Made by a program: the position numbers and the translations under genes. Below the pieces are notes generated by a model. The model was not told the DNA's origin and searched no databases. It worked only from the letters and a program-made list of their open reading frames with translations. Source: Candidatus Uhrbacteria bacterium (GTDB lineage: Bacteria > Patescibacteriota > Patescibacteriia > SG8-24). From it: 64,000 nucleotides of DNA. Positions 18,502 through 64,000 of the stretch are shown here, in pieces (the stretch's first letter is position 1; every line of letters begins with the position of its first letter). Where the stretch lies: the NCBI GenBank assembly GCA_016929435.1, contig JAFGIV010000005.1, positions 23,596 to 87,595 of the forward strand, read 5' to 3'.

Positions 18502-19914
18502 ATGACCAATCATGAGCTTTGGCAGGCGGTATTGGGTGAGCTTGAGCTGAACCTAAGCAAGGCCAACTTCACGACTTGGTTCAGGAATACCGGAATATCC
18601 TCCTTTGGGGACGAGCAGGTGGTCATTAGCGTCCCCAATACCTTCACCAAGGCCTGGTTGGAGAAAAAATACAATGATTCCATCCTGAAATCCATCAGAA
18701 ACGTCAGCGGCAACCAGATAAGGAACTTATCCTATAGGGTCGATGCGCGCCCTGTATCCAAGCAGGTTTCCGAATCCCAGAACCAACAGTCCAATTACGG
18801 GACGCAGACGTCGACGGCCACCGCCATCCGGACCGACGAGAGGGACTTTCCGGAATGCTTTCCGGACACGGCCGCAAAACGGTCCGGTGAGGGGCGGTTG
18901 AACCCCAAATACACCTTTGATACGTTCGTGGTCGGCAAGGGAAACGAGTTGGCCAACGCGGCGGCGGCGGCCGTAGCCGAAAAGCCGGGGATAAAGTACA
19001 ACCCCCTGTTCGTCTATGGCGGTGTCGGACTGGGAAAGACCCATATCCTTCAGGCCATCGGGAACGAGATGACCCGCCATAACCCGGACACCAAGGTGAT
19101 GTACGTCACCTGCGAAAAGTTCACGAACGATTTCATCAGCGCAATCAAACACGGTCACGGCAAGGAATTCAAGGACAACTACCGTAACGTTGACCTCCTT
19201 CTCATAGACGACATCCAGTTCCTCACCGGAAAAGACGGGACACAGGAGGAATTTTTCCATACCTTCAACACGCTCCACGAGGCCAACAAGCAGGTCGTCC
19301 TGACTTCCGATCGCCCGCCGAAACAGATACCTGCCCTTGAACACCGCCTGGTTTCCCGTTTTGAGTGGGGAATGACCGTAGACATATCCAGCCCTGACCT
19401 GGAGACCAGGATCGCCATCCTGGAGACTAAATGCAAGGAAAGGAATTATGACCTTGACCGGGAGATAATCCACCACATTGCCACGGTCATCCAATCGAAT
19501 GTCAGGGAACTGGAAGGGGCACTGAACAAGATAATCGCCTTCCACCAGTTCAAGAACATACGTCCCACGCTTGAGGCGGCCAAATCTCTCCTTTCCAGTT
19601 TTGGGGCGACCCATTCCAAAAAATCCGTTACCCCAAAAACCGTCCTGGACGCCGTCAGCGGATACTTCGACGTCAGTATCCAGGACATGCTCGGTCCAAG
19701 CAGGGAGAAAAAACTGGCCTTTCCCAGGCAGGTGATAATGTTCCTGATGAGGGAGGAGACCAGCATCTCGTACCCCAACATCGGCAAGGAGCTGGGGAAT
19801 CGCGACCACTCGACGGCCATGCACGCCTGCGACAAGATAAGGAAGCAGCTGGAACACGACACCAAACTGCGGCAGGACATTGAGCTTATCCGACAGAGGA
19901 TGTTCAGTGCTTAG
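18502..19914 (+). CDS. dnaA: Chromosomal replication initiator protein DnaA
   Basis: Walker A GGVGLGKTHIL, sensor motifs and a C-terminal HTH (DHSTAMHA). Confidence 0.96.
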   Translation: MTNHELWQAVLGELELNLSKANFTTWFRNTGISSFGDEQVVISVPNTFTKAWLEKKYNDSILKSIRNVSGNQIRNLSYRVDARPVSKQVSESQNQQSNYGTQTSTATAIRTDERDFPECFPDTAAKRSGEGRLNPKYTFDTFVVGKGNELANAAAAAVAEKPGIKYNPLFVYGGVGLGKTHILQAIGNEMTRHNPDTKVMYVTCEKFTNDFISAIKHGHGKEFKDNYRNVDLLLIDDIQFLTGKDGTQEEFFHTFNTLHEANKQVVLTSDRPPKQIPALEHRLVSRFEWGMTVDISSPDLETRIAILETKCKERNYDLDREIIHHIATVIQSNVRELEGALNKIIAFHQFKNIRPTLEAAKSLLSSFGATHSKKSVTPKTVLDAVSGYFDVSIQDMLGPSREKKLAFPRQVIMFLMREETSISYPNIGKELGNRDHSTAMHACDKIRKQLEHDTKLRQDIELIRQRMFSA

Positions 19915-43264: not shown

Positions 43265-43518
43265 TGATTTCCCGTCTTGACGATTTGGCAATTGGATTGA
43301 TTTGAATATTTGAACCTCGAAATTCATTTGTAAACCTTTCGTCGTCAAAGACGGCAAAGGGGCCATCGAAAACCGTGTCGCAGGCTCGGGACGTGTCGCC
43401 CGGATCGAGTGCCTTCGGGACTTTCTGGCTGAAATGCCACAGTTTGCTTTTGGGTTTTTTCACGGGGTTGCGGCCTATCGCCAAATGGTTATGTGGTATG
43501 ATTATTCCGTAGGCACTT

Positions 43519-46409: not shown

Positions 46410-46949
46410 ATGGGTCAACCAGATAAGCTCCGAAATTTAATCCTATATATCCTGTCCCACCAGGATTATCAGGAGGGCGGCGTAAAGAAGCTGAACAAGC
46501 TGCTTTATTTTATTGATTTTTATTTTTATCGCGATCATGAGCGGTTAATTTCTGATGCAAAATACGCCAAGGCCCCAATGGGGCCAGTCATTGATTCTTA
46601 TCAGGAGGTATTTGCCAAACTTGTTGCGGACGGAGACTTGAGGCTGATTGAAGATGTCAGCACGAAGGTATACAAGCCACTTCGTCAGGCTGAGGTAGGG
46701 ATGTTTACTTCCGAGCAGGTCGATCACATATCCAAGGTGCTTGATCGATACGGAAAATTGTCGGGACGCGATCTCGAGTGGATCTCCCACCAGCAGCAGC
46801 CGTGGGTTCTGACCGAGAATTTTGGCGACATCATTGATCCCGACCTTGCCTTGTTGATTGATGATGAGGTGAGCGATTCCGACACCAGTTTTATAGAAAA
46901 CGAGAATCTTAGGAACGAGCTGCAAAATCTCGCCAACCAGGCCGATTAG
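46410..46949 (+). CDS. Panacea-domain (DUF4065, SocA-like) protein; putative antitoxin
   Basis: KLRNLILYILSH...GGVKKLNKLLYFIDFYFYRDHERLISDAKYAKAPMGPV matches the DUF4065/Panacea N-terminal core. Low-GC gene. Confidence 0.65.
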   Translation: MGQPDKLRNLILYILSHQDYQEGGVKKLNKLLYFIDFYFYRDHERLISDAKYAKAPMGPVIDSYQEVFAKLVADGDLRLIEDVSTKVYKPLRQAEVGMFTSEQVDHISKVLDRYGKLSGRDLEWISHQQQPWVLTENFGDIIDPDLALLIDDEVSDSDTSFIENENLRNELQNLANQAD

Positions 46950-46962
46950 GGAGAGGCTTGCT

Positions 46963-47304
46963 ATGGGAGAAATCGTAATCGAGGTAATTGAGTCGTTGGA
47001 TAGACAGGTCAACGACCTTTCCTCGTCGGATTCAAAAATCAGGAAGCTGTTCAATAAACAGCGGCGGTTCATGTCACTGAACCCGCATTACTCATCGTTA
47101 GGAAGGAAGAAATTGCAGAACGTATTTGATCAGTACGGGAACCAATTGGAGGAAATCAGGCTAAACAGGTACTGGCGGATCGTATTTATCGTCAGGGATG
47201 AGGGGCAGAGGGTGGTTTGGTTGAAGCTTTGCGATCACGATGAAATTGCAAGAAACAACCGACTGTTCATTGATGGCCATCCGGAAGGGCCGCCGGCCAT
47301 TTGA
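46963..47304 (+). CDS. RelE/ParE/HigB-fold putative toxin (113 aa)
   Basis: C-terminal pattern KKLQNVFDQYGNQLEEIRLNRYWRIVFIVRDEGQRVVWLKLCDHDE resembles the RelE/HigB core (YRI.F.v.d...v.iL.i.dHd). It lies 13 nt after the Panacea gene. Confidence 0.5.
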   Translation: MGEIVIEVIESLDRQVNDLSSSDSKIRKLFNKQRRFMSLNPHYSSLGRKKLQNVFDQYGNQLEEIRLNRYWRIVFIVRDEGQRVVWLKLCDHDEIARNNRLFIDGHPEGPPAI

Positions 47305-49307: not shown

Positions 49308-49379
49308 CCTGCCTTTTTGGGGCGGGTTTCGGTACGGTTTTGTCGTTATCCCCCCGTTTCCGTGACAAAACGCACGCCT

Positions 49380-50396
49380 ATGAATACCCTAAGGGTCGGC
49401 TTGGCGGAATTTCCCCCGCTGGTATCCGGCGATTACGGCCATTTCCGCGGTTTTGAGGTTGACCTGTGGGAAACGGTCGCCGGAGAGCTTGGTTTTCAGT
49501 TCGAATACCGGAAATACCCGTTCCAGAAACTGATTCCGATGCTGGCCGAGGGGAAGCTGGATGTTGCCATGGCGGGGATCACCATCAACGAGGATAGGGA
49601 AAGGATCATCGATTTCTCCCACCCGACCATGGATTCCGGACTGGTGATTGCGGTGGATCGGGACCGTAACCGGTTGAGGCTGTCCGAAACGGTCAGGGCG
49701 GTCGTTGGTTCGGGGTACCGGACCGTAAGCCTGACCCTGCTTGCCGTCCTTTCCTTCATCTTCGCCCTGGGGAACCTCCTGTGGCTGGCGGAAAGGGGGG
49801 TCGGGACGTTCAGTGAAGGTTATTTTCCCGGCGTTTTCGAGGCCTCCTGGCTGGTGTTCTCTTCCGTTACGACCGTCACGTTCGGGGATTTTTATCCGAA
49901 TACCTGGCTCGGCCGGGCAGTCGTTTTCGTTTCCGTAGTGGGGGGTGTCGGCATCCTGGCGACTTTGGTGGCGCGGTTCACCGCCTTTTTGGCGACCAGG
50001 AAGGTCTGGCGGGAAATCGCCGGGATTTCGGACCTGTCCGGCAGGAAGGTGGCGGCCGTCAGCGGATCCACCAGCGAGCAGGCCCTGACGAGACTGGGCA
50101 CGGATGTCACCGGCACGGAAACGGTCGGTGAGGCCCTCATGCTCCTGGAACGGCGGGAGGTGGAGGCGGTCGTTGCCGATGCCCCTGTCTTGGCGCATCA
50201 CCTCAAGGACAGCAGGGGAGGTCGAGTGGAGACCGTTGGGGATGTTTTTGACGGGCAGAAATACGGCATTGCCCTTCAACAGGGGAGTCCCCTGCGGGAA
50301 AACGTCAACCGGACCCTGCTCCGCCTGATCGAGTCGGGCCGGTACGGCGCGCTTTACCGCCAGTGGTTCGGCCAGGATCCGTCGATGGAGATATAG
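49380..50396 (+). CDS. Ionotropic-glutamate-receptor-like ligand-gated channel (SBP_bac_3 domain interrupted by a K+-channel pore module)
   Basis: N-terminal SBP lobe (RVGLAEFPPL..GFEVDL...KLDVAMAGITINEDR). M1 helix, then a pore helix + TVTFGDFYP filter-like sequence and an M2 helix. Second SBP lobe (KVAAVSGSTSE...VEAVVADAPVL). No obvious signal peptide; a TTG at 49317 is an alternative start. Confidence 0.65.
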   Translation: MNTLRVGLAEFPPLVSGDYGHFRGFEVDLWETVAGELGFQFEYRKYPFQKLIPMLAEGKLDVAMAGITINEDRERIIDFSHPTMDSGLVIAVDRDRNRLRLSETVRAVVGSGYRTVSLTLLAVLSFIFALGNLLWLAERGVGTFSEGYFPGVFEASWLVFSSVTTVTFGDFYPNTWLGRAVVFVSVVGGVGILATLVARFTAFLATRKVWREIAGISDLSGRKVAAVSGSTSEQALTRLGTDVTGTETVGEALMLLERREVEAVVADAPVLAHHLKDSRGGRVETVGDVFDGQKYGIALQQGSPLRENVNRTLLRLIESGRYGALYRQWFGQDPSMEI

Positions 50397-52228: not shown

Positions 52229-52331
52229 GGGTTTTTCCGTAAGATTTTGATATTTGATTCGTGCCGGGCAAGTGCCCGGCATTTTTTTTCCGTATGGCCA
52301 CCGGTTCCCCGGTCTGGTATCATTGTCTGGT

Positions 52332-53708
52332 ATGAAGAGAGCCCTGTTTCCCCTGGTTATTGTTGCCCTGACCCTGGTCGGGGCCGGTTGCCTGAACGGC
52401 CAGCCCAAGATGACCCCCGTCACCCTGGAATATTGGCGCATGGAGGACGACCCGTCCGACCTGGATCCGGTCATTGCGGCCTACCGGGAGACTCACCCCC
52501 AAGTGACCGTCAATGTCACCCGCTTTCCCAGGGAGGATTACCGGAAAACCCTGCTGACGGCCCTGGCCGAGGGCCGCGGACCGGACATGTTCAACGTTCC
52601 GCACGCCTGGCTGCGGGGTTGGATGAAAAAAATATCCCCAATGCCGGCCGAACGGTCAGTGGTCGAGCGGACGGCGGACGAATCCGGGCAGCCGGTAAAT
52701 GTCGTCCGGAAGAAGCCGGCCATGAGCCTGCTGCAGCTGGACCGGGATTTTGCGGAAGTGGCGGCCAAGGCCGTGGTTTTCGAGGTCATAACGGACGAGA
52801 AGGCCAACACCAGGGAAAGGCAGGTTTTCGCCCTGCCGTTCTCGGCCGATACCCTGGCCATGTACTACAACCGGGACCTCCTCCGCAACGCCAACATCGG
52901 CGAGCCCCCCAAGACCTGGGCCCAGCTCCAGGAACAGGCAGCCATCCTTAGCCGGAAGGGGGAGGACGGGAAACTGGAGCAGTCCGGGGCGGCCTTGGGG
53001 TGGTCGAACGTCGGGCGGAACACCGAACTCCTGGCGGCCTTGATGGCCCAGAACGGCGCGCCCATGAACAACGCCGGACGGCCGTATTTCTGGTCCGCTC
53101 CGGCCAAGTGGGACAGGGGAACCCTTCCCGGGGTGGAGGCCCTGGGCTTTTACCGCAGTTTTTCGGACCCCAATTCCTCCAACCGGTCCTGGGACCGTGA
53201 TTTCAGCAATGACCTGGATACCTTCATCGCCGGGCGGACGGCCTATTATTTCGGGTTGCCGGAAGACGCCAAAAGGATTCGGGCCATGGCCCCGCGGCTC
53301 GATCTCGGCGTTGCCCCGTTGCCCCAGATCAAGGCGGACAGGAGAATAAACATCCCGCTGTTTCCCGTGGAGACCGTCTCGAAGGACTCCAGATACCCGG
53401 GTTATGCCTGGGATTTCCTGGAGTTCGCCGCTTCGGCGGACCAGGTCAGGGGTTTCCTCTCGTCTTCCGGCAGGCCGGCGGCCCTGCGTGACCTGATTGA
53501 GGAACAGAGGGGCGACGCTGCCGTAGGCCCGTTTGTCGGCCAGGTCCTGACCGCCGAGAGCTGGTATTTGGGGTACGACTACGCGAAGACCGAAAGCCTG
53601 TTCCGTGATATGGTGGAAACCGAGCCCAGCCGGGAAAACACCTACGTGAAGATCCTTACCGAATACGGCAGCCAGGTTTCCCGGACCTACGTCGCCCCTA
53701 ACTACTGA
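52332..53708 (+). CDS. Extracellular solute-binding lipoprotein (SBP family 1, sugar-ABC-like), orphan
   Basis: Lipobox LVGAGC; SBP_bac_1-like length and motifs. No adjacent permease or ATPase genes. Confidence 0.7.
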   Translation: MKRALFPLVIVALTLVGAGCLNGQPKMTPVTLEYWRMEDDPSDLDPVIAAYRETHPQVTVNVTRFPREDYRKTLLTALAEGRGPDMFNVPHAWLRGWMKKISPMPAERSVVERTADESGQPVNVVRKKPAMSLLQLDRDFAEVAAKAVVFEVITDEKANTRERQVFALPFSADTLAMYYNRDLLRNANIGEPPKTWAQLQEQAAILSRKGEDGKLEQSGAALGWSNVGRNTELLAALMAQNGAPMNNAGRPYFWSAPAKWDRGTLPGVEALGFYRSFSDPNSSNRSWDRDFSNDLDTFIAGRTAYYFGLPEDAKRIRAMAPRLDLGVAPLPQIKADRRINIPLFPVETVSKDSRYPGYAWDFLEFAASADQVRGFLSSSGRPAALRDLIEEQRGDAAVGPFVGQVLTAESWYLGYDYAKTESLFRDMVETEPSRENTYVKILTEYGSQVSRTYVAPNY

Positions 53709-53714
53709 TACGCT

Positions 53715-54599
53715 ATGAGAAAGATCAGGAAAGCCATCATCCCGGTCGCCGGCTTGGCCACCCGTTTCCTTCCGGCCACCAAGGCCCAACCCAAGACCAT
53801 GATGACCCTGGTGGACAAGCCCATCATCCAGTACATCGTGGAGGAGGCCGTGGCCGCCGGAATTGAGCAGGTGATTTTCGTCACCGGTTCCAACCAGAAC
53901 TCCATCCAGGACCACTTTGACAGCAATTTCGAGCTGGAACACGTCCTTCAGCAGAGGGGAAAGCTCAAGGAACTGGAGGAGGTCGTCCGGACCACCAACA
54001 TGGCCAAGTTCGTCTATACCCGCCAGCATTCCCCGCGCGGCGACGGGCACGCCATCCTGATGGCCAAGGACCTTGTCGAGAACGAGCCGGTGGTCGTCAT
54101 GTACGGGGACGACATCTTCGACGCCCGGGTTCCGGTGACCGCCCAACTGATCGAGACCTACGAGAAATACGGCGAACCGGTGATTGCCCTATACGACGTC
54201 GGGCGGGAGAACGTCTCCAAGTACGGAATTGCCGGGGGGCGGATGCGGGACGATCGGGTCATGGAGGTGGAGGGTTACGTGGAGAAGCCCAATATCGGGG
54301 AGGCGCCGTCGAGCTATGCCGGCGTGGCCCGGTATGTCGTCACCCCGGAGTTGATGGCCGTCCTGGCCAGGCAAAAGGGCGGTTTTGACGGGGAGATCCG
54401 TCTGGCCGATGCCTTTACCGAATACCTGTCCGAAGGCCTGGGGAAGGTCGCCGGAAGGATAGTCGATGCCCGCCGTTACGACTGCGGCGACAAGACCGAG
54501 TTCGTCAAGGCAACCCTGGATTTCGCACTGAAGAACGGGGAGGTAAACCGGGACGGGGTCCTGACCGAATACGTCAGGCACCGGGCGTCCGAACTTTAG
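53715..54599 (+). CDS. galU: UTP-glucose-1-phosphate uridylyltransferase
   Basis: KAIIPVAGLATRFLPATKAQPKTMMTLVDKPIIQYIVEE is the canonical GalU N-terminus. Confidence 0.93.
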   Translation: MRKIRKAIIPVAGLATRFLPATKAQPKTMMTLVDKPIIQYIVEEAVAAGIEQVIFVTGSNQNSIQDHFDSNFELEHVLQQRGKLKELEEVVRTTNMAKFVYTRQHSPRGDGHAILMAKDLVENEPVVVMYGDDIFDARVPVTAQLIETYEKYGEPVIALYDVGRENVSKYGIAGGRMRDDRVMEVEGYVEKPNIGEAPSSYAGVARYVVTPELMAVLARQKGGFDGEIRLADAFTEYLSEGLGKVAGRIVDARRYDCGDKTEFVKATLDFALKNGEVNRDGVLTEYVRHRASEL

Positions 54600-54608
54600 C
54601 CGGAACCT

Positions 54609-56036
54609 ATGGAAGGACCGATTCGTTTGGGAAGGAGGGGAACGGCAACCAGGCTGTTGCCTGCGCTGCTGGCCGCGGCGATCCTGGCCTTCGGCGGTTT
54701 CGGCTGCAAGGTCGAAAGCCGGGAGATAAGGGAGAAGACCCAGCCGGTAACGCTCAGGTGGTGGAGCGTTTTCAGCGACTACAGCGCCCTGGCCCCCGTC
54801 ATCAGGGATTTCAGGGTACGGCACCCGAACGTCAAGGTGGAATACCGCAAGTTCGGGTTCGACGAGTACGAGCAGGCCGTCCTGGACGCCATGGCCGAGG
54901 GCCGCGGACCGGATGTCCTGAGCCTTCACCACACCTGGCTTCGGGAATGGCAGGAACGGTTGGTGCCGTCTCCGGCCACCCTGGAGATGGCTTTCGTCGA
55001 GATACAGGGATCAATCAAGAAGGAACAGGTGACGGTTTTGCGCGAGGTTTCCGGGGCGACTCCCGGGCAGGTAAACAACGATTTCCTGGATGTCGTGTCC
55101 GGGGACGTGATCCTTCCGGTTCCCCAATCCGATCCGCGCCTTCCCCCCGTGTCCAGGGTTTTCGGGCTGCCGCTGTCCGTTGACACCATGGTGATGTACT
55201 ACAACCGGGGAATCCTGGATGCGGCGGAGATACCCAAGCCGGCCCAGGACTGGGGAGAGTTCCAGCAACAGGTCCGCAGCCTGACGAAACTGGACGAGTC
55301 CGGTGGGCTGGTCCAGTCGGCCGTGTCCCTCGGGACGGCCGACAACGTCGAGCGGGCCGCGGACATCCTGTCCCTGCTCATGATCCAGAACGGAACGCCC
55401 ATGTCCGACCAGACCGGCGGGGTTACCTTTGACCGGCATTCGGAGGCGACGGTCGGGCAGCCGATGACCCCCGGAGCCACGGCCCTGGTCTTCTACAACG
55501 ATTTCGCCAATCCCCTGAAGGAGGTCTATACCTGGAACGAGGAACAGCCCGATTCCCTCCAGGCCTTCATGTCCGGAAAGACCGCCTATTTCTTCGGCTA
55601 TTCCTATCACCTGCCGCAGATCCGGGCCCAGGCCCCTGACCTGAACCTGGGGATTGCCGCCATGCCGCAGATTGCCGGGAACCAGCCGGTCAACTACGCC
55701 AACTACTGGGTGGAGACGGTTTCCGGGAAGACGGCCCACCTGGATGAGGCCTGGAGCCTGGTCCGTTTCGTCACCCAGGCCGATAACGCCAAGAAATACC
55801 TCTCTTCAGCCGGGCGGCCCACGGCCCTTCGGCAGCTGGTTAACGGGCAGCTGGAGGAGAGCGACATGTCGGCGTTCGCCTCCCAGCTCCCTTCGGCTCG
55901 GAGCTGGTATCGGGGAAAGGACGGTCAGGCCACGGAGCGGGTGTTCCTGGACATGATATCGGCCATGCTCCAGCCGGAGGCCGATCCCCAAAGGATTCTG
56001 GAGGTGGGGGCGGTCAAGGTCAACCAGACCCTTTAA
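54609..56036 (+). CDS. Extracellular solute-binding lipoprotein (SBP family 1), paralog of 52332-53708
   Basis: Lipobox FGGFGC. Conserved blocks are shared with the upstream paralog (VTL.YW..., AEGRGPD, TWL..W, YYNRD/YYNRG, LD.AW, GRP.ALR). Confidence 0.7.
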   Translation: MEGPIRLGRRGTATRLLPALLAAAILAFGGFGCKVESREIREKTQPVTLRWWSVFSDYSALAPVIRDFRVRHPNVKVEYRKFGFDEYEQAVLDAMAEGRGPDVLSLHHTWLREWQERLVPSPATLEMAFVEIQGSIKKEQVTVLREVSGATPGQVNNDFLDVVSGDVILPVPQSDPRLPPVSRVFGLPLSVDTMVMYYNRGILDAAEIPKPAQDWGEFQQQVRSLTKLDESGGLVQSAVSLGTADNVERAADILSLLMIQNGTPMSDQTGGVTFDRHSEATVGQPMTPGATALVFYNDFANPLKEVYTWNEEQPDSLQAFMSGKTAYFFGYSYHLPQIRAQAPDLNLGIAAMPQIAGNQPVNYANYWVETVSGKTAHLDEAWSLVRFVTQADNAKKYLSSAGRPTALRQLVNGQLEESDMSAFASQLPSARSWYRGKDGQATERVFLDMISAMLQPEADPQRILEVGAVKVNQTL

Positions 56037-56072: not shown

Positions 56073-56621
56073 ATGACAGGAAAGACAAGACGAACGGCGG
56101 CCGCCTCGGCCCTCATGGCCCTCTCCCTTCTTTTTGGGGCGGCCGTGGCCGGACCGGTCCTGGCCCAGGCGGAGATGGATTTCACGGAACAGGAGGTGGC
56201 GGACTACCAGGCCGCCACGACCCGGAGGGCGTTCGTGATCGTCCCGGAATGCGCCAGGGCCACGCCGGCCAACACCATCCCCCAACTGTCCTGCGTCATG
56301 GAGATGTTCGGCAATGTCGCCACCATGATCCTGGGGGTGACGGGCAGTTTTGCCCTGCTGATGTTCGTATACGGCGGTTTCCTGATGGTGACCTCGGCCG
56401 GAGACTCCTCAAAGGTGTCGGCCGGAAAGAAGGTCCTGACCAACGCCGTAATCGGCATATTCATCATCATGGTTTCCGGCATTGCCCTGCGCTATGCCTT
56501 GGGCATCCTGGTCCGGAACAACAACTTCCGGCTGGTCGGACAGCCCTGTGCCGGGAAGACCGGACAGGTCTACGTGCTCATGCCGGACGGATCGATCGGC
56601 TGTGCCGCCGTTTCCCAGTGA
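56073..56621 (+). CDS. VirB2/TrbC-like (T4SS-pilin family, PF18895-type) small secreted membrane protein, paralog 1
   Basis: Signal peptide, variable Cys-containing mature N-terminus, conserved C-terminal ~70-aa two-helix module (ILGVTGSFALLMFVYGGFLMVTSAGDSSKVSAGKKVLTNAVIGIFIIMVSGIA). Confidence 0.7.
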   Translation: MTGKTRRTAAASALMALSLLFGAAVAGPVLAQAEMDFTEQEVADYQAATTRRAFVIVPECARATPANTIPQLSCVMEMFGNVATMILGVTGSFALLMFVYGGFLMVTSAGDSSKVSAGKKVLTNAVIGIFIIMVSGIALRYALGILVRNNNFRLVGQPCAGKTGQVYVLMPDGSIGCAAVSQ

Positions 56622-56648
56622 CGGGGGCGGATTTTACCCAGAACACCT

Positions 56649-57164
56649 ATGCTTACCGGAAGAACACTGGCGACAGCGGCCCTTCTGGCCACGATCGGCT
56701 GTTACGTGGCCGGCCCGGCCCTGGCGGAGGAGGCCTTTATTTGCGAAGGCACCGACGACAACCCCTACCCCACGGCCGAAGCCTGTGACATGAACTGCCT
56801 GGGGGAATGCACGACCGTCAACCTGACGCCGGAAGGGTCGGTCGATACCACTGTTTCGGGGGGCGCCAAACCAACGGAGGCCACTCCGGCCTTCCAGACC
56901 AGGATCCTGGAAAACCCCCTGGGAAAGGAGGATATGGACATCCCCATGGTCATAGCCCGGGTGATTGAGGTTTTCACGGGAATCGTCGGGTCCTTGGCCC
57001 TGCTGGTTTTCATCTACGGCAGCTTCCTGCTCATGACCTCGGCCGGGGAAAGCAAGAGGGTGGAGTCCGGAAAGCAAGCCATGTTTTGGGCGGTCGGCGG
57101 CCTGGTCGTCATGTTCGCGTCCTACGCCTTCCTGAAGGTCCTGTTGAGGGGGTTGGGAACCTGA
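56649..57164 (+). CDS. T4SS-pilin-like small protein, paralog 2
   Basis: Same architecture. Cys-rich N-terminal region; FTGIVGSLALLVFIYGSFLLMTSAGESKRVESGKQAMFWAVGGLVVMFASYAF. Confidence 0.7.
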   Translation: MLTGRTLATAALLATIGCYVAGPALAEEAFICEGTDDNPYPTAEACDMNCLGECTTVNLTPEGSVDTTVSGGAKPTEATPAFQTRILENPLGKEDMDIPMVIARVIEVFTGIVGSLALLVFIYGSFLLMTSAGESKRVESGKQAMFWAVGGLVVMFASYAFLKVLLRGLGT

Positions 57165-57191
57165 CGGCCCTGAAATAACAAAGACATTGGT

Positions 57192-57572
57192 ATGGCAAAA
57201 AGGCTCAAAAGGCGGTTGGCGGGTTTGGCGGCTGCCGCGGTTGTCGCGCACCAGTCGTTCCTGTCGGCAGGATCGGCCCTGGCCCAGGGTGAGGGGCAGA
57301 GTTCCGGCAACGTCGGCGTGCCGACTCCGGTCGGCGGGGACGTGACCCTGTCCGAATACGTCGGCCGGTTCATCAACGGGGCCTTGGGCCTGACCGGCGT
57401 GGTGGCCCTGGCGGTTTTCGTTTATGCCGGTTTCCTGATGATGACCGCCCGGGGTAACGCCAAGCAGGACGAGAAAGCCAAGCAGACCATGTTTTGGGCC
57501 TCCATCGGCCTTTTGGGGGTGTTCGCCTCCTATGCGGCACTTAGGTTCGTCCTGCAGATGTTGGGGGCCTGA
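57192..57572 (+). CDS. T4SS-pilin-like small protein, paralog 3
   Basis: FINGALGLTGVVALAVFVYAGFLMMTARGNAKQDEKAKQTMFWASIGLLGVFASYAA. Confidence 0.7.
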   Translation: MAKRLKRRLAGLAAAAVVAHQSFLSAGSALAQGEGQSSGNVGVPTPVGGDVTLSEYVGRFINGALGLTGVVALAVFVYAGFLMMTARGNAKQDEKAKQTMFWASIGLLGVFASYAALRFVLQMLGA

Positions 57573-57584
57573 GTTTTGTTTGGC

Positions 57585-57613
57585 TTAACCTTGGCCCGAA
57601 AATGCGGTATAAT
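57585..57613 (+). promoter_or_regulatory. Internal promoter in the pilin array (TTAACC, 17-bp spacer, TATAAT)
   Basis: Perfect -10 TATAAT at 57608-57613; an RBS AAGGGGGTGA precedes the ATG at 57668. Confidence 0.45.
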
Positions 57614-57667
57614 GCACTTAGGCATTTTGTGGATATTTTCCACTGTCTTGAAAGGGGGTGAGCAAAT

Positions 57668-58045
57668 ATGAACAAGTTACTAACCAAGAAGATCGCCGTC
57701 GGTGCGGCCATGGCAGCCGCCATGTTGCCGATCGTGGCCATGGCCCAGGGGCCGGATCTCGGCCTGGAATACGCCACGGCCACCGGGTTGACCTCCACTG
57801 ACGTCCGTACCACGATCTCCATGCTGATCAATGCCTTCATGGGGCTTTTGGGCATCGTGGCGGTGTGTCTAATCCTTTTCGGCGGTTTCAAGTGGATGAT
57901 GGCGGCCGGCAACACGGAAAGGGTGGAAGAGGCCAAGAAACTGATGATTTCCGGCGTCATCGGCCTGATCATCATCATGACCTCCTACTCCATTGCCCAG
58001 TTCGTCATCGGTGCCATCCAGAAGGGAACCTCGGGTGAGATATAG
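57668..58045 (+). CDS. T4SS-pilin-like small protein, paralog 4
   Basis: LINAFMGLLGIVAVCLILFGGFKWMMAAGNTERVEEAKKLMISGVIGLIIIMTSYSIAQFV. Confidence 0.7.
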   Translation: MNKLLTKKIAVGAAMAAAMLPIVAMAQGPDLGLEYATATGLTSTDVRTTISMLINAFMGLLGIVAVCLILFGGFKWMMAAGNTERVEEAKKLMISGVIGLIIIMTSYSIAQFVIGAIQKGTSGEI

Positions 58046-58135
58046 GAAACTGGATAGCAAAGCTTTGCCCCGAATCCTTCCGGATCGGGGAGTGTTGCCT
58101 CCGGCACCGCTCCCCGGTCCGGAAAAAGACCGCCT

Positions 58136-58558
58136 ATGGAAGGGAAAACAGTAAGGAATTTCATCGTTTGCCTGTCGTTCGCCTTCGTGGCGGCGGCTTT
58201 CGGTACCTTCGGTCCGCTGGCTTCCGCCCCGGCCCTGGCCTTGGATACGGGTTTGGAGAGCACGGCCCTGCATGCCGGACTTTCCGAGGGTGATGACGGT
58301 TCCAATGCCGACGTTGCCATAATCGCCGGGCGGGTGATCAACGCCCTTTTGGGGCTGGTTGGGGTGGTTTTCCTGGTCCTGGTGATATTCGCCGGATACA
58401 AGTGGATGATGGCCCGCGGCAACGCCAAGGAAACGGAGGACGCCAAGAACATGCTTGTTCAGGCCGTGATCGGACTGCTCATCATCTTCGCCGCCTATGT
58501 CCTGGTGGATTACCTCCTGGGATTGGCCATCTTTGAGGTGGTGGGGGTGGACCTGTAG
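58136..58558 (+). CDS. T4SS-pilin-like small protein, paralog 5
   Basis: VINALLGLVGVVFLVLVIFAGYKWMMARGNAKETEDAKNMLVQAVIGLLIIFAAYVLVDYL. Confidence 0.7.
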   Translation: MEGKTVRNFIVCLSFAFVAAAFGTFGPLASAPALALDTGLESTALHAGLSEGDDGSNADVAIIAGRVINALLGLVGVVFLVLVIFAGYKWMMARGNAKETEDAKNMLVQAVIGLLIIFAAYVLVDYLLGLAIFEVVGVDL

Positions 58559-58639
58559 TCCTTGCGTTTTTCTCGGATAAGGCCGCATAATAAGGATAAT
58601 TAGACCTAAATCTAAAACCGTTTTAACTAAGCCGTAATT

Positions 58640-59092
58640 ATGAAAAGACTAACCAAGAATCTGGCGGCGTTCGGCCTGACAGTGGCCCTCTGCCTGCCGT
58701 TGGCCGCCATGGCCGTTTCCCCGGTCAGCGGCGATGCCGGCGGGAATGCGGTCAGGTTGGCCCAACAGGGGGATCTGGGGGACATCACCTCCAATTTCGA
58801 GAAGGTCGGCACCAGTTCCGGCCTGTCCGGTTCCGCATCACGGGACCTGCCCACCATCATCGGGGCGATCATCAACGCCTTCCTGGGGCTCTTGGGCATC
58901 GTGCTGGTGGTCATCATCATCTTCGCCGGCTACAAGTGGATGATGGCCCGCGGAAACACCAAGGATGTTGACGATGCCAAGACCATGATCCTCAATGCGG
59001 TCATCGGCATGGTGATCCTGATGGCGGCCTATGCCATTGCCCAGTTCGTCCTGAAGGCCGTGGCCAAGGGCACGACCGGCACTGATTTCTAG
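58640..59092 (+). CDS. T4SS-pilin-like small protein, paralog 6
   Basis: IINAFLGLLGIVLVVIIIFAGYKWMMARGNTKDVDDAKTMILNAVIGMVILMAAYAIAQFV. Confidence 0.7.
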   Translation: MKRLTKNLAAFGLTVALCLPLAAMAVSPVSGDAGGNAVRLAQQGDLGDITSNFEKVGTSSGLSGSASRDLPTIIGAIINAFLGLLGIVLVVIIIFAGYKWMMARGNTKDVDDAKTMILNAVIGMVILMAAYAIAQFVLKAVAKGTTGTDF

Positions 59093-59106: not shown

Positions 59107-59150
59107 ACAAAAAACCCCTCCGGAAAGCTCCGGAGGGGTTTTGCTTTTTT
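59107..59150. terminator. Bidirectional intrinsic terminator
   Basis: AAAAAACCCCTCCGG-aaagct-CCGGAGGGGTTTTGCTTTTTT. Confidence 0.75.
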
Positions 59151-59169: not shown

Positions 59170-59871
59170 TCAGTGTACCTGGTGGCGTCGAATGAGACGC
59201 CAGTCAAGCCACTCGTGATAGCCCAATTGGGCTTCTCCGGTTTTTATCTCAAAAGAGAACCTTAACATCTCCACGGGGACCGGTTCCCGGACCGTATAGG
59301 CCACGCCGGCCACGACATGCCGGCCCGGTTTGTTGAGGCAAAGGTGGATTACGGATTTTGGGGGCATATAGGGCAATGCGCCCTGTCCGCCCCGGACCTC
59401 AACCGGTTCCCCGTCCAGCATCAGCCGGACGGAGAAATTGGTTGGATTGTGTATCCTCATGTGCAACGGCGTGTTTTGGCACGCCGTTGGTTCACTGTTG
59501 AGCCAGGACATGTTTTGGGGAGGGTTGGGCATGTCATGCCCGTCCCTTGCCTGATTTCGGTCGATCCGTCCGGATCCGGATCCGTATCCGCCGTAGCCGT
59601 AGAAACCGGCTTCGTCGCCCATTCCGTAATGGCCGTAGCCGCGGTCCCCGGGGCAGATTACCCCGGTGTCCCCGTTTTCCCGGGCAGCCCAACATCGGCG
59701 CAGGGATTCTTGTTTTATTTGCGTCTCTCCGATCGTGTAGGCCATACCCTCTGGATTGTGGGCATGGCCGTGGATTTCCGAATCCCCAACCCGAGATTCG
59801 AACCGGGCGTGGCCGCCGCCGCAGCCGATGGCTATGGCCATGACGGCCCAGATCACGGTTGTTCTTTTCAT
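59170..59871 (-). CDS. Hypothetical lipoprotein (Gly/Tyr-rich)
   Basis: Lipobox AIGCGGG; GYGGYGSGSG low-complexity region. No known domain. Confidence 0.55.
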   Translation of the reverse strand: MKRTTVIWAVMAIAIGCGGGHARFESRVGDSEIHGHAHNPEGMAYTIGETQIKQESLRRCWAARENGDTGVICPGDRGYGHYGMGDEAGFYGYGGYGSGSGRIDRNQARDGHDMPNPPQNMSWLNSEPTACQNTPLHMRIHNPTNFSVRLMLDGEPVEVRGGQGALPYMPPKSVIHLCLNKPGRHVVAGVAYTVREPVPVEMLRFSFEIKTGEAQLGYHEWLDWRLIRRHQVH

Positions 59872-60223
59872 TTCTTATCTCTCCTTTTTTGTTGAGAATG
59901 TCCTTAGGCCGAAGATTAGCAAAATTTTTAGGTGGTGTCAACGGTGGCCTTTCTTGTTTCATTTTTGCGGACCGGGCGTCCGTTGGCGACCCCCGTTGGC
60001 CCGCATCAGCTGTCTGATGTCCCTTCGGCCCGACCCCCCTTGCCCCGCACCGGCGGACCGACCCGCCTTCGGCCCCCTCTCCCTTTGGGAGACTGCCGTA
60101 AAGGGGGCCGGACCGACGCATCCGGTCGGGGAATCATTGGGGGAAATATAAAAAATATCCTCCACTTAAGCCCCTGAAGCGTAAGTCTCCCGCGGGGAGG
60201 GGGTTTGGGGGGCAGGACTGGAT

Positions 60224-60256
60224 AAAAAATCACCCCCGTTTTTAGCGGGGGTGAGA
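60224..60256 (-). terminator. Intrinsic terminator of the 512-aa membrane-protein gene
   Basis: TCACCCCCGC-taaaaa-CGGGGGTGA followed by TTTTTT on the minus strand. Confidence 0.65.
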
Positions 60257-60283
60257 GAGAAAGAGCTTTTTGAGACGTGTCAG

Positions 60284-61822
60284 TCAGAATGCCGAGATTA
60301 CCTGAGACGGTATCTCGGCAAGGTTGTTAAGAAGGTGAGGGAAGCTCCCGTGTCGGAGCTTCTTTGGCCGGTCCACCGTTTGGGCGGCGGACGGTTGTCG
60401 TCGGATGGGGGGTGGGGGAGAGAAGGCAACCCCGGCGGCCGTTGTTTCAGGTATGGCCGGAACGGTCATGTCGGCCTGTTCGGTTGCCGCTTTGGTTGTT
60501 GCCGTTTCGGTCTTGTTGGGCCAGAACTGTATAGACAAGGCCACGATCGCGGCCATGGCCGCAATCGTGATGGCGGCCTTGGGCTGCCTGATGATCAGGA
60601 AGACCATCAGGGCGATTCCGCCCACGATAGAGATGATCACCCACCCGGATGGCCCTTTGCCGTTATCCGGGGTAGATATTCCGGCCTGTTGGCGGATAAA
60701 GGTTCCGGCTTTGGCTGCCGGAATTTTTCTCTCAACCAACTCCGCATAGCGGGTCTTGTACTGTTCGCACGGCCCGGCGAACTGGCCGCCGCAATCTACT
60801 ACAACCGCATTCTCGATGGCCGTTTTTTCGGCCACGAGAGCCAATTCCAACCGCTCGTTGACGGCACTTTCCGCAGCCGTCTCCATTCCGAAATCCAGGT
60901 GATTTCGGATTCCGCGGAAGGCACCGGGAAACGCCAGGGACAGCAGGGCGACGGCCGCCCCGACCATCGCCACATTCACGGCCATCTTTTTCATTAGGTC
61001 GGTTTTCGACCAGCCTGCTGAATAGGCCGCTGCCAGGAGCATGATGCAGGTGGCGACGGCTCCCAAAGCCGACAGGCTCCGGTATAGAGGAACCACTTGG
61101 GCGATCAGGCCGAGCAGGGCGGCCCAGGCGCAGTATCCGGACAGCCACCTGAAGAGACTGTCCGTTTTGGTTATCGGGATTTCCGGGATTTTTCCGGAAA
61201 TTGCGTGACTGGCAACGGAAGCCAGCCTGGTGGCCTCGATGCCGAGCATGGCCCGGAACCGGAACAGCGCCGTGAACCCCAAGGCCCCTATTACCGTTGC
61301 CACGGCTATGAGCCCCTGGCCCACCTCTTCCTGGTCAGCCGATAGGTTTTTCGACATGGCGACGGCGATCCCGATAAGGGAAAGCATGAGGATCAGCCTA
61401 GCGCCGATTTTTGACTCAACCAAGGATATCTCATACGTGATGTCCTTGGTTTTCTGGTCGGCGTCGTTTCTGGATCCGCCATTTTTGGTGTTCTTGGTTT
61501 TCCCGGCTTTTTTCAGCCTTTTTCTTAGGCATAGACACGCCCAGATTTTGGGCGCGGCAAATATTAGGGTTACCAGAGCCAAGATTATTGTGACCTTGGT
61601 TCCCGCCATCATACCGAACCGTCCGGTGGCGATTCCGATGGCAAACGTGATTAGGGTCATTATGACGGTTAACTTCACCAGCATCAGGCTGGCCTTGATA
61701 AACCGTTCGGCCGTTTCAGCTACACCCATTGCCTTGTCGGCGACGGAATACCGGATCAGTCTCCCGAACTCCGTCCCGAAGGCGGCGATGCCGCCCACCA
61801 ACATCAGAATTACTTCTTTCAT
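60284..61822 (-). CDS. Polytopic integral membrane protein (512 aa), function unknown
   Basis: About 10-12 TM helices with a central cytoplasmic Cys-containing segment. A VirB6/TrbL-like role is speculative. Confidence 0.6.
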   Translation of the reverse strand: MKEVILMLVGGIAAFGTEFGRLIRYSVADKAMGVAETAERFIKASLMLVKLTVIMTLITFAIGIATGRFGMMAGTKVTIILALVTLIFAAPKIWACLCLRKRLKKAGKTKNTKNGGSRNDADQKTKDITYEISLVESKIGARLILMLSLIGIAVAMSKNLSADQEEVGQGLIAVATVIGALGFTALFRFRAMLGIEATRLASVASHAISGKIPEIPITKTDSLFRWLSGYCAWAALLGLIAQVVPLYRSLSALGAVATCIMLLAAAYSAGWSKTDLMKKMAVNVAMVGAAVALLSLAFPGAFRGIRNHLDFGMETAAESAVNERLELALVAEKTAIENAVVVDCGGQFAGPCEQYKTRYAELVERKIPAAKAGTFIRQQAGISTPDNGKGPSGWVIISIVGGIALMVFLIIRQPKAAITIAAMAAIVALSIQFWPNKTETATTKAATEQADMTVPAIPETTAAGVAFSPPPPIRRQPSAAQTVDRPKKLRHGSFPHLLNNLAEIPSQVISAF

Positions 61823-61846
61823 TTTTTTACTCCGTATTTTTTCAGA

Positions 61847-62704
61847 TCAGAGGCCGAACATGTCCAACGGGCCGACCGGTTTCTTTTTATTCTTCCGGTC
61901 GTTAAATTTTCGTTCGGCCTCATCGGCCTCCTCTCGGTATTTCTCATCCCATTTCTTGAAATGGGATGAGATGGTGGCCTCGCCCTCTTTGGCCGGTTCC
62001 GACACCCTTTTCAGGAACCGGGCGATCGTTCCGCCCAGTCCCCGTTCCTTTTTCGAGGTCACCAGCTTGTCCAAGTGCCTCAGCCGTTTTTTCTCGTCGA
62101 TTGACATGAGGCCGACAAGCTCAAGGACAGAAGATATCGCCCACATCTGCTCTGCGAGCTCGTCATATTCTGTTTCGGAGAGATGGTCTACCCACTCTTT
62201 CATGTCCTCAAAGACATCAGGGCGGTTCTGTTTGAGCCACCCAAGAATCTCGGCGAAGGACATGTCGGCCAGGCCGTCCCTGTAGTTGTTCGACTGTTTC
62301 TCGAAATCGTTGAGGGCCTTTTCGGCCGCTGATTTTGTTGCTTTCGATACCGTTTCTTTTTCGGCGTCTGACATCTGGGAAGGTTTTTTCTTCAACAGCG
62401 CCTCTCCGATCTTGTTGCTTAATTCTCTGGCGAATAGCTCCGCCAACTTTGAGAACCAACCGTCGGATTTTATGCTGTTTAGGGCCACAATTATGGCGTT
62501 TGGCCCGAATTTTCCGACCAGACAGACCATTTCTTTCGGCAGGTTCTCGCGAACCCATCGAAATATTCCGGCCTTTTCGATTTTAGCCACCCATTTGGTG
62601 ACCAGTTGGTCTACTTGCGGCTCGATCACGGCGTGCTGATCGGCGTTTCCGATCAACTTATCCATAAGGCTGGATACCGACCATTCTTTATTGTCGCTAC
62701 TCAT
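61847..62704 (-). CDS. Hypothetical hydrophilic Lys/Glu-rich protein (285 aa)
   Basis: Start MSSDNKEW preceded by RBS GAAGGAG. The first 54 codons of the listed ORF are discounted. Lower GC than the surroundings. Confidence 0.55.
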   Translation of the reverse strand: MSSDNKEWSVSSLMDKLIGNADQHAVIEPQVDQLVTKWVAKIEKAGIFRWVRENLPKEMVCLVGKFGPNAIIVALNSIKSDGWFSKLAELFARELSNKIGEALLKKKPSQMSDAEKETVSKATKSAAEKALNDFEKQSNNYRDGLADMSFAEILGWLKQNRPDVFEDMKEWVDHLSETEYDELAEQMWAISSVLELVGLMSIDEKKRLRHLDKLVTSKKERGLGGTIARFLKRVSEPAKEGEATISSHFKKWDEKYREEADEAERKFNDRKNKKKPVGPLDMFGL

Positions 62705-62846
62705 GTCTACTCCTTCTTTCTGACCCGGTTGGACCGGGTGTTTTTTACGGTTCAGGTTCTGTTGCGGAGAGTCCCCACAACATCGCACCTTACAGTATTT
62801 TGGCGATTTTGTCAACAGTTTTGGGCAAAGAGTGTAGAATGTAAGC

Positions 62847-64000
62847 ATGATTGCCGTCTTGACCAAAAAAACTCTGTCTTGGGCAGGAAAGGCCGGTTCG
62901 TCCGTCTTGGCCCGTCCCCGGACCGCCCTGCTGATCTTGATCGGGATGCATGCCGTTTTTTGGAGTGCGGTTTGCCTATGGAAATACGGTTTTTTCCTGT
63001 ATAACGGTTTTGATCTGGCCTATTTCGGCCAGGTTTTCTGGAACTCCCTGCATGGGGACCTTTTCGCCCAGACCCTCCATCCGCACCTGTCCTTGGGTGA
63101 CCATGCCGAGTTGGCAATTCCCCTCCTCCTTCCGCTTTACGCCGTTTGGGCCGATCCCCGGATGCTGCTCATCCTGCAGCAGGCGGCCTTGGCAGGGGCG
63201 GCCTGGCCGATTTACCTTCTGGCCGTCCGGCGGTTCTCGGCTTCCGGCGCGACTGGCAAGTGGCTCAAGGCCGGCCCCCTGATTTTGGCGGCCTCTTGGC
63301 TTCTATGCCCGTCGGTGCAGAATTTGGGGCTGTTCGAGTTCCATATCCTGCCGTTTGCCCTCCTGCCGCTGTTTTTCTTACTTCTGGAATACGACCGGGG
63401 CCGGCTGAAGCCGTTCCTGTTCTGGACGGTCCTGGCCCTGCTGGTCCGGGAGGACGTGGCTTTGGCGGTTTTCGCTGTCGGGATCCTGGCTTGGATCGAG
63501 GGGAAGCCGAAAATATGGCGCTGGCTGCCGGTCGTTCTGGCCGCCGCCTGGTTTGCCCTGTCCATGCTCGTCATCTCCCGTTTCTCCCTGGGCGGCGGAT
63601 ACAAGTTCATGGTCTATTATTCCTGGCTCGGGGAAACGCCGTGGCAGGCGGCTTGGGGGATCGTTCGCCATCCGGTCGCGGTCCTTCGCCATGTCCTGAC
63701 GGTCTTCAATTTCGAGATGGTCTTGGGGTTCCTGATGCCGATGGCTTTCCTGCCGCTTTTGGCCCCGCGGTTCCTGGTTTTGGCGATCCTGCCCCTGCTC
63801 CAGATAATCCTGGGGGCTCCGGGCGGCGGGGCCCTGGTGGTCAATACGCACTATGCCACCCTGTTTCTTCCGGCGGTATTTTTCGGGGCCGCTGTCGGCC
63901 TGGTCCGGTTGCCGGGCCTTTTGTCCAGGTTGGCGATATTCGGCTCTGGTCAGGTGAATTCCGTGTCCGGCGGCCTCCTGGCCCTGACCGTCACCTATTC
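62847..64000 (+). CDS. DUF2079-family integral membrane protein (GT-C-like), 3'-truncated at the window end
   Basis: The frame is open from the ATG at 62847 to the window end and is absent from the ORF track because there is no stop. YGFFLYNGFDLAYFGQVFWNSLHGDLF...LGDHAELAIPLLLPLYA matches DUF2079. Confidence 0.75.
   Translation, partial: MIAVLTKKTLSWAGKAGSSVLARPRTALLILIGMHAVFWSAVCLWKYGFFLYNGFDLAYFGQVFWNSLHGDLFAQTLHPHLSLGDHAELAIPLLLPLYAVWADPRMLLILQQAALAGAAWPIYLLAVRRFSASGATGKWLKAGPLILAASWLLCPSVQNLGLFEFHILPFALLPLFFLLLEYDRGRLKPFLFWTVLALLVREDVALAVFAVGILAWIEGKPKIWRWLPVVLAAAWFALSMLVISRFSLGGGYKFMVYYSWLGETPWQAAWGIVRHPVAVLRHVLTVFNFEMVLGFLMPMAFLPLLAPRFLVLAILPLLQIILGAPGGGALVVNTHYATLFLPAVFFGAAVGLVRLPGLLSRLAIFGSGQVNSVSGGLLALTVTY

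Follow-up and report, generated by a model that had tools for sequence, protein, structure and literature searches.

Tandem arrays of small pilin-like genes have been described in Patescibacteria. Southlakia epibionticum ML1 carries six genes of the PF18895 family (SEML1_0014-0019) inside an essential type IV secretion system (T4SS) cluster (Wang et al., 2023, PMC10633639), and a search of 3,035 genomes with PF18895 and PF04956 recovered 441 arrays of 2-11 pilin genes (Quiñonero-Coronel et al., 2025, PMC12102498). The copies within Patescibacterial arrays share a mean identity of 25% and a maximum of 54%, and pilin genes were found near virB4 in 1135 of 1948 assemblies (PMC12102498). We take this last proportion to mean that virB4 proximity is not a strict requirement for an array. 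A 2025 review also highlights Patescibacterial VirB2-like arrays, and the VirB2 paralog arrays of Bartonella and Anaplasma are cited in PMC12102498, where the idea of variation is raised by analogy. Here we analyze an array of six PF18895 genes at positions 56073-59092 of a 64,000-nucleotide window (the whole stretch of DNA that was analyzed, to which all positions refer) from contig JAFGIV010000005.1 of a 'Candidatus Uhrbacteria bacterium' metagenome-assembled genome (GCA_016929435.1). The source agrees with the Candidate Phyla Radiation origin that a preliminary description had proposed from the letters alone, and the genome table of PMC12102498 lists Uhrbacteria under class ABY1. The array is one more example of the published Patescibacterial VirB2-like pilin arrays; it has a fixed order of members and a conserved partner gene for a sugar-binding protein, neither of which is mentioned in the literature covered.

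Six co-directional open reading frames (ORFs) on the + strand fill 56073-59092, exactly the limits first given for them, and encode proteins of 182, 171, 126, 125, 140 and 150 amino acids separated by intergenic gaps of 27-95 nt. GC content at third codon positions (GC3) is 0.76-0.84 in the six pilin genes and 0.56-0.57 in the opposite-strand shadow ORFs. In an independent assembly (L001; L numbers denote related records and loci) the same six genes are called, each with a precomputed PF18895 annotation, and proteins identical to the six are recorded under JW899_00795 to JW899_00820 for a metagenome-assembled genome named 'Candidatus Uhrbacteria bacterium', where their contig is 111 kb long. 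Published arrays are defined by at least two PF18895 or PF04956 genes in tandem or with one non-pilin gene between them; here six are consecutive, the host is a Patescibacterium, and the copies are divergent, with pairwise identities of 20-52% that are restricted to the hairpin described below. The locus therefore shares with the Southlakia and other published arrays its family, its tandem layout, its low identity among copies, its chromosomal and origin-proximal location and, with Southlakia, the number of six genes. Unlike them it lies neither within nor beside a T4SS cluster, and its class is ABY1 and not Saccharimonadia or Microgenomatia. It differs too in being preceded by a conserved lipoprotein of the SBP_bac_1 solute-binding protein (SBP) family, together with galU, in its fixed order of subtypes, and in having one gene with standout expression signals.

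Membership in the PF18895-type (T4SS_pilin) family, as first suggested, is upheld by hidden Markov model (HMM) scores: all six pilins exceed the gathering score of 26.6, at 30.5-49.1 bits (E 4e-7 to 6e-13). The TrbC/VirB2 model PF04956 gives lower scores. Its best match, pilin 5, spans profile positions 11-98 of 98 and at 26.7 bits (E 6.6e-6) falls just short of the 27.9-bit gathering score. For three more of the pilins the scores are 14.7-20.2 bits, and pilins 1 and 4 are not matched at E≤1. On these scores the relation of the pilins to PF04956 is one of remote similarity and not of formal membership. NCBIfam NF045849, with a cut-off of 40, is exceeded by pilins 4 (46.2) and 6 (41.4), and the remaining pilins score 27.7-35.1 bits, save pilin 1, which has no match. 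Many homologs bear PF18895 and PF04956 together, and several are named 'pilin' by NCBI.

In a heuristic check for signal-peptide features, combined with hydropathy, all six proteins begin with a positive n-region and a hydrophobic h-region, an AXA-type site falls at residues 25-35, and two hydrophobic segments lie beyond it. The preliminary description's signal peptide and two-helix hydrophobic module are thus found in all six, and for pilin 4 an AlphaFold2 model built on a 57-sequence alignment predicts a helix-loop-helix hairpin (H46-78 and H83-121) with a predicted local distance difference test score (pLDDT) of about 90. The short polar loop between the helices holds a near-invariant Lys, and the positions conserved across the 57 sequences include non-hydrophobic ones, namely the loop G-N…A-K and D45. 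We weighed whether these could be generic small membrane proteins, holin-like or other, that match PF18895 by composition alone. The PF18895 model is indeed short (71 positions) and hydrophobic, weak sub-threshold matches to holin, FixQ and DctQ models occur, and the fold search was non-specific. Yet all six proteins pass a curated threshold and two pass an independent NCBIfam cut-off, the conserved loop and D45 are not hydrophobic, and arrays of the family recur in conserved synteny, so this explanation is largely refuted and we give it hardly any weight.

Pilin 1 (subtype 1; 56073-56621, + strand; 182 aa; PF18895 32.7 bits) has a signal peptide, a Cys-bearing N-terminus, the hairpin and a Cys-bearing C-terminal extension, with Cys at residues 60, 74, 159 and 177; its VPECA…C motifs are kept in orthologs P0046 and P0102, and a subtype 1 gene is always the first after the SBP. 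Pilin 2 (subtype 2; 56649-57164, +; 171 aa; PF18895 30.5 bits) has a long mature N-terminus with four Cys, at residues 32, 46, 50 and 54. A reading of pilin 2 as a lipoprotein, from its …TIGC lipobox, was rejected because the lipobox is atypical and the AXA site lies downstream of it. Pilin 3 (subtype 3; 57192-57572, +; 126 aa; PF18895 32.5 bits) gains a charged n-region and a normal signal peptide if started at the ATG at 57192; a public gene call places the start at a TTG at 57225, which gives 115 aa and cuts off the charged n-region. Pilin 4 (subtype 4; 57668-58045, +; 125 aa) has the highest PF18895 score of the six (49.1 bits; NF045849 46.2 bits). Pilin 5 (subtype 6-like; 58136-58558, +; 140 aa; PF18895 36.4 bits; TrbC 26.7 bits) and pilin 6 (subtype 6; 58640-59092, +; 150 aa; PF18895 44.2 bits; NF045849 41.4 bits) are 49-52% identical to each other. 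Mature N-termini that are 'often Cys-containing', as first described, are found in pilins 1 and 2, while pilins 3-6 are without mature Cys. Likewise the proposed consensus IF.G(Y/F)KWMMA.GN describes pilins 4-6, and pilins 1-3 follow a looser version of it.

Compared with the VirB2/TrbC major pilins of Gram-negative T4SSs (for example Agrobacterium tumefaciens VirB2, RP4 TrbC and R388 TrwL), the six pilins have in common a long signal peptide, a small mature two-helix protein, a short charged loop, termini that would both lie outside according to the model, and near-threshold TrbC matches. They differ in their sub-threshold scores and the lack of a match to TrwL, in their monoderm host, in having no adjacent virB3 or virB4, in being six paralogs rather than one, and in their long, variable N-terminal extensions. 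A second comparison is with Mbov_0395 and MMCAP2_0565 of Mycoplasma integrative and conjugative elements, the proteins to which NF045849 refers. Here the likeness lies in the scores of pilins 4 and 6 above the cut-off and in the monoderm nature of both hosts, which fits the reported MPF-FATA (mating-pair formation class FATA) ancestry of Patescibacterial T4SS. The Mycoplasma gene is single copy, on a mobile element and beside conjugation genes, whereas the Uhrbacteria array has six genes and is chromosomal, without mobile-element or relaxase context. The model's title, 'Mbov_0395 family pilin-like conjugal transfer protein', is an annotation name and the function it conveys is putative.

We next consider how the copies relate to one another. 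The six-paralog alignment was too divergent to serve as a query, and species-representative genomes were therefore searched with pilins 4-6. This yielded 54 related loci, all of them in Patescibacteria and most of them tandem arrays of 5-11 pilin genes. Two independent sets of loci, more than 80 in all, share the subtype order 1-2-(3)-4-6n; the closest loci read 1-2-3-4-6-6…, and the number of subtype 6 copies ranges from 1 to 8 between genomes. The closest genome (L138, on a 1.5-Mb contig) has the same cluster of SBP, galU, SBP and six pilins, with 1:1 orthologs of pilins 1-6 in the same order at 56, 49, 48, 65, 51 and 60% identity. For comparison, the L138 counterparts of galU, of the first SBP gene (SBP-A) and of the second (SBP-B) are 50, 52 and 67% identical.

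These relations bear on the suggestion, made when the array was first described, that the N-terminal differences reflect diversifying selection. In its strongest form this would make the six genes interchangeable versions of one pilin, kept diverse in order to evade or match hosts. Low paralog identity and N-termini that vary in length and sequence speak for such a cassette, as do the variable copy number of subtype 6 and the faster evolution of N-termini than of the hairpin (among orthologs, 22% versus 66% identity in subtype 1 and 38% versus 74% in subtype 6). The same contrast is much smaller in subtype 4, which is highly conserved throughout and whose mature N-terminus is 61% identical among orthologs. 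Moreover, each of the six genes has its own ortholog in L138, in the same order and evolving no faster than galU and SBP-A; the order of subtypes is kept across the two locus sets; subtype 1 is set apart by conserved Cys motifs and by a constant place beside the SBP; and strong expression signals are found at one gene only. Since the six copies have 1:1 orthologs in L138 that are in the same order and about as conserved as galU, the differences between paralogs appear to be old and stable, which argues against ongoing hypervariation. The turnover or diversification of copies faster than background that the Bartonella and Anaplasma model calls for was not seen in the L138 comparison. Protein identity to the closest relatives is no more than 48-67%, a distance at which synonymous sites are saturated and no ratio of nonsynonymous to synonymous substitution rates (dN/dS) is possible. 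In the Uhrbacteria locus, as in the Bartonella and Anaplasma arrays, T4SS pilin genes have multiplied in tandem and diverged; those arrays are read as antigenic or host-range variation, while the copies here are stable, ordered, orthologous subtypes. We consequently disfavor the variation cassette and think it improbable.

One subtype stands apart from the others. Pilin 4 is the best-conserved paralog, sharing 65-73% identity with many proteins that are about 124 aa long. Upstream of it, in a long spacer on the + strand, lies a sigma-70-like promoter-like site (57585-57613, TTAACC-17-TATAAT) that matches 10 of 12 consensus positions and corresponds to the internal TATAAT promoter of the preliminary description. 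Sites matching at least 10/12 positions occur upstream of subtype 4 genes in 11/39 loci and downstream of them in 2/39. A strong Shine-Dalgarno sequence, GAAAGGGGGTGA, was read from the sequence at 57650-57661 (+), 6 nt before the pilin 4 start codon. Its GAAAGG(G/T)GGTGA motif also precedes subtype 4 genes at many loci, and nothing comparable is present at the other five pilin genes of the window. In the 90-nt spacer 3' of pilin 4 (58046-58135) an intercistronic RNA hairpin of about 21 bp is predicted on the + strand at 58078-58124, with no T-run after it; the spacer has a minimum free energy of -45.2 kcal/mol (z -5.2), and 0/200 shuffles were as stable. The hairpin could be an attenuator or a 3' stabilizer. 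Spacers after subtype 4 genes are long at related loci as well: their median is 92 nt in the first set of loci and 67 nt in the second, where other gaps within the arrays have medians of 7 and 13 nt, and hairpins with z below -2 were found in 30/31 and 25/29 of the spacers after subtype 4, respectively. An Rfam scan of the hairpin gave no match and control spacers often hold hairpins; the idea of a new RNA family was accordingly rejected and the element treated as terminator-like or attenuator-like.

The best conservation, a promoter-like site of its own, a strong ribosome-binding site such as no other gene of the array has, and a stable 3' hairpin together make subtype 4 a candidate, and likely, major subunit. 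The reading is indirect and draws on expression signals that are supportive but not decisive: the promoter is a consensus match only, in a 7-kb region that has 3 such sites where shuffles lead one to expect 2.0, and hairpins are common in control spacers (28/45, mean z -3.0), so that their enrichment after subtype 4 is moderate. In chaperone-usher pap and fim operons and in type IV pilus operons, the gene for one highly expressed subunit precedes a stem-loop, beyond which lie genes for accessory subunits, with which a binding protein is associated. The likeness of the array to these operons is organizational only and by analogy; no relation exists between the protein families or between the assembly machines.

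The array belongs to a larger co-directional cluster. On the + strand upstream of it lie SBP-A (52272-53708; SBP_bac_1, PF01547/PF13416, precomputed in L001; lipoprotein-like signal …LVGAGC; GC3 0.80), a galU-like gene for a UTP-glucose-1-phosphate uridylyltransferase that follows after a 6-nt gap (53715-54599; PF00483, 1.4e-21) and, directly upstream of pilin 1, SBP-B, an oligosaccharide-type SBP_bac_1 lipoprotein gene (54609-56036; PF01547, 1.4e-23, and PF13416). GC3 is uniform at 0.76-0.84 from SBP-A through pilin 6. When the neighbors of the 54 genome loci were clustered, the sole strongly recurrent family was the SBP_bac_1 gene. A homolog of SBP-B occurs at 22 other genome loci, with a pilin gene directly 3' of it in 22/22. 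The reverse test agreed: at metagenome loci found by SBP alone, a pilin start lies within 150 nt in 64/70 of those with at least 450 nt downstream of the SBP. The galU family stands directly upstream of the SBP family at 10 genome loci and at about half of the metagenome loci.

SBP-B has an SBP_bac_1 HMM match and the class I/II periplasmic-binding fold. Its lipobox Cys33 is invariant in 53 orthologs, and its AlphaFold2 model (pLDDT 91.8) finds sugar-binding SBPs of the GacH, CbpB and MalE class by Foldseek (E down to 5e-23, template modeling score about 0.75). Linkage to a cognate permease and ATPase was not seen, since no ATP-binding cassette (ABC) permease or ATPase genes were present among the window ORFs scanned, in the L138 neighborhood or among the recurrent neighbor families. 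The text of PMC10633639 and PMC12102498, so far as it was searched, makes no mention of an SBP-pilin link. On this evidence the conserved partner of the array is the upstream SBP-B and not the convergent genes downstream, which had initially been put forward as possible partners.

Those convergent genes occupy 59170-62866 on the - strand and encode a lipoprotein-like protein of 233 aa, a polytopic protein of 512 aa and a K/E-rich protein of 285 or 339 aa. None of the 233-, 512- and 339-aa genes has a Pfam or NCBIfam match, and their GC3 is 0.63-0.70 against about 0.8 in the array cluster. As conserved partners they were rejected, because they recur only as weak homologs (25-33%) in L138 and at no other array. 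In L138 they sit at the same position, and the flanking DUF2079 and GT2 genes are conserved; the convergent genes look like a fast-evolving islet between conserved flanks. The terminator that the preliminary description placed at the end of the array is present as a bidirectional intrinsic-terminator hairpin at 59111-59142 (14 bp, with T-runs on both strands; from a terminator scan), and it closes both the pilin array and the convergent genes. Its spacer folds at -30.8 kcal/mol (z -3.3).

If the pilins are assembled by a T4SS, the genes for the machine must be sought elsewhere. The window is ordinary chromosome, with genes for PNPase, a ComM-like protein, H+-PPase, trigger factor, dnaA, PBP1A and PolA and three tRNAs. 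The absence of VirB4/VirD4-type ATPases, claimed from the letters alone, was borne out among the window ORFs of at least 400 aa, and inspection of the right flank (about 10 kb, L002) likewise found none. Around related arrays, too, no VirB4-like gene was present, with ±10 kb covered at each of the 54 genome loci and ±7 kb at each of 80 metagenome loci anchored on the SBP. The search combined Pfam on the large window ORFs and on 32 representative large neighbors of related arrays with Walker-A scans, and it met only FtsH, IF-2, ComM and SMC.

Our preferred reading, which we hold to be somewhat better than even, is that of a chromosomal operon-like module, SBP-A–galU–SBP-B followed by six differentiated pilins of the VirB2/TrbC superfamily, which would be assembled by a T4SS whose VirB4 and VirB6 are encoded elsewhere and of which subtype 4 would be the major subunit. 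Several results weigh against it. Apart from the lack of ATPase genes nearby, no linkage of the array to VirB3, VirB4 or VirB6 was met in the window, in the flanking 10 kb or near related arrays. Every TrbC/VirB2 Pfam score is sub-threshold, and hhalign of R388 TrwL (VirB2) against the 57-sequence pilin profile gave no match (probability 0.3), although a single-sequence template makes this a weak test. A profile search of PDB sequences with hmmsearch found no relevant match, Foldseek against the PDB returned generic helical hairpins only (E of 1 or more), and no pilus has been described for any PF18895 protein in the literature covered.

These same results are the ground of the main rival, in which the two-helix proteins act with a sugar-binding lipoprotein and galU in a T4SS-independent envelope system, anchoring or organizing a glycan-capture or cell-surface structure, or being assembled by a machine other than VirB4. 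Around 130 arrays of the lineage have no VirB4, VirB6 or VirD4 near them, and neither sequence nor fold links the proteins to any solved pilus subunit. The constant neighbors are the SBP_bac_1 lipoprotein and, often, galU, and the further neighbors of related arrays are envelope genes too: GT2 and GT-C-like glycosyltransferases, a flippase, Lgt and PBP1A. Set against this are the PF18895 genes inside the essential T4SS cluster of a member of the Saccharimonadia, the proximity of pilin genes to virB4 in more than half of the published assemblies cited above, and the agreement of PF18895, TrbC and NF045849 in indicating conjugation-type pilins; furthermore, the genes for pilins and for their assembly machines are often unlinked. 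On balance we judge the envelope system a serious but minority possibility, at about one chance in four.

For assembly by a T4SS, which we infer, the family itself, the Southlakia precedent and what is generally known of VirB2 pilins suggest the following course. The pilins would be exported by Sec and cleaved by signal peptidase, leaving hairpins pooled in the membrane, from which a monoderm MPF-FATA-like VirB4/VirB6 machine encoded elsewhere in the genome would extract and polymerize them. The product would be a pilus or short conduit that serves host-cell contact and exposes on its outside both the variable N-termini and subtype 1's C-terminal extension. Subtype 4 would form the bulk of it, the hairpin 3' of its gene raising the transcript level relative to that of the downstream genes. 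Subtypes 1-3 and 5/6 would be accessory, and the SBP lipoprotein may work with them, for example in glycan recognition. A bolder version, which we consider doubtful and offer as speculation, holds that the SBP_bac_1 lipoprotein and subtypes 1-3 form a glycan-recognizing complex on a subtype 4 pilus, with genes unlinked from those of the T4SS ATPases. If this were true, a monoderm ultrasmall bacterium would have recruited the receptor-binding part of a pilus from an ABC-transporter binding protein, and a sugar-sensing T4SS pilus would be the means by which ABY1 Patescibacteria recognize their hosts or tap them.

The position of the array was also considered. The dnaA gene lies at 18502-19914, while the minimum of cumulative GC skew and a switch in gene orientation lie near 30-38 kb instead. 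The pilin cluster is 20-37 kb from dnaA or the skew minimum, on the + strand and in a region of positive skew. Its closeness to dnaA and to the skew switch fits the origin-proximal T4SS placement reported for Patescibacteria. In several relatives the array directly adjoins dnaA, dnaN and PBP1A.

Related loci showed further arrangements. At eight of them (L023, L042, L048, L096, L115, L124, L127 and L132) a gene for a ComM/YifB-type (Mg-chelatase-like) ATPase, often with smc, lies just upstream of the SBP-pilin module, and there the subtype 1 pilin is split from the array by RodZ-like, methyltransferase, small membrane protein and YraN-like genes. Elsewhere a module of signal peptide and pilin hairpin forms the N-terminus of huge proteins, as in L004 (7640-9880 and 9899-19936) and in L007, L009, L015, L043-L045, L054 and L056. 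These proteins are of 579-3345 aa, often two in tandem, and lie downstream of lepB, hisS, rpsU and a gatB/yqeY-like gene; they look like surface proteins anchored by the hairpin. Records titled 'uncultured Gammaproteobacteria bacterium' (L003, L008, L009, L011-L013, L016, L018, L022-L024, L026, L035, L038, L042 and L049) hold Patescibacterial gene content and arrays, and the Gammaproteobacteria names on these third-party assemblies look wrong.

Within the window, three loci upstream of the cluster were recorded in passing. A 359-aa protein (49317-50396) joins an SBP_bac_3/glutamate-binding domain to an ion-channel pore (Ion_trans_2, Lig_chan), the architecture of a prokaryotic GluR0-like ligand-gated channel. 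A SocA/Panacea antitoxin-like gene and, after it, a ParE-like toxin gene (Pfam 22.8 bits, below the 24.4 cut-off) occupy 46410-47304, where the GC content of the window is at its lowest (0.49 at 46-48 kb). Two large genes at 41306-45783 encode proteins of 652 and 754 aa, with no T4SS-related match in either; the 754-aa protein matches a carboxypeptidase-regulatory-like domain at 25.9 bits, where the cut-off is 32.3.

Patescibacteria account for much of bacterial diversity and for the most part live attached to other microbes, and their T4SS with its pilin array is essential in the one species tested, so that a locus of this kind bears on the question of function. The Uhrbacteria array adds nothing categorically new to what has been published; its interest lies in the linkage of SBP and pilin genes and in the organization into major and accessory members. 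The leads it offers are that the ABY1 array travels with a sugar-binding lipoprotein and not with secretion ATPases, that its subtypes are fixed and ordered, and that one of them is the likely major subunit.

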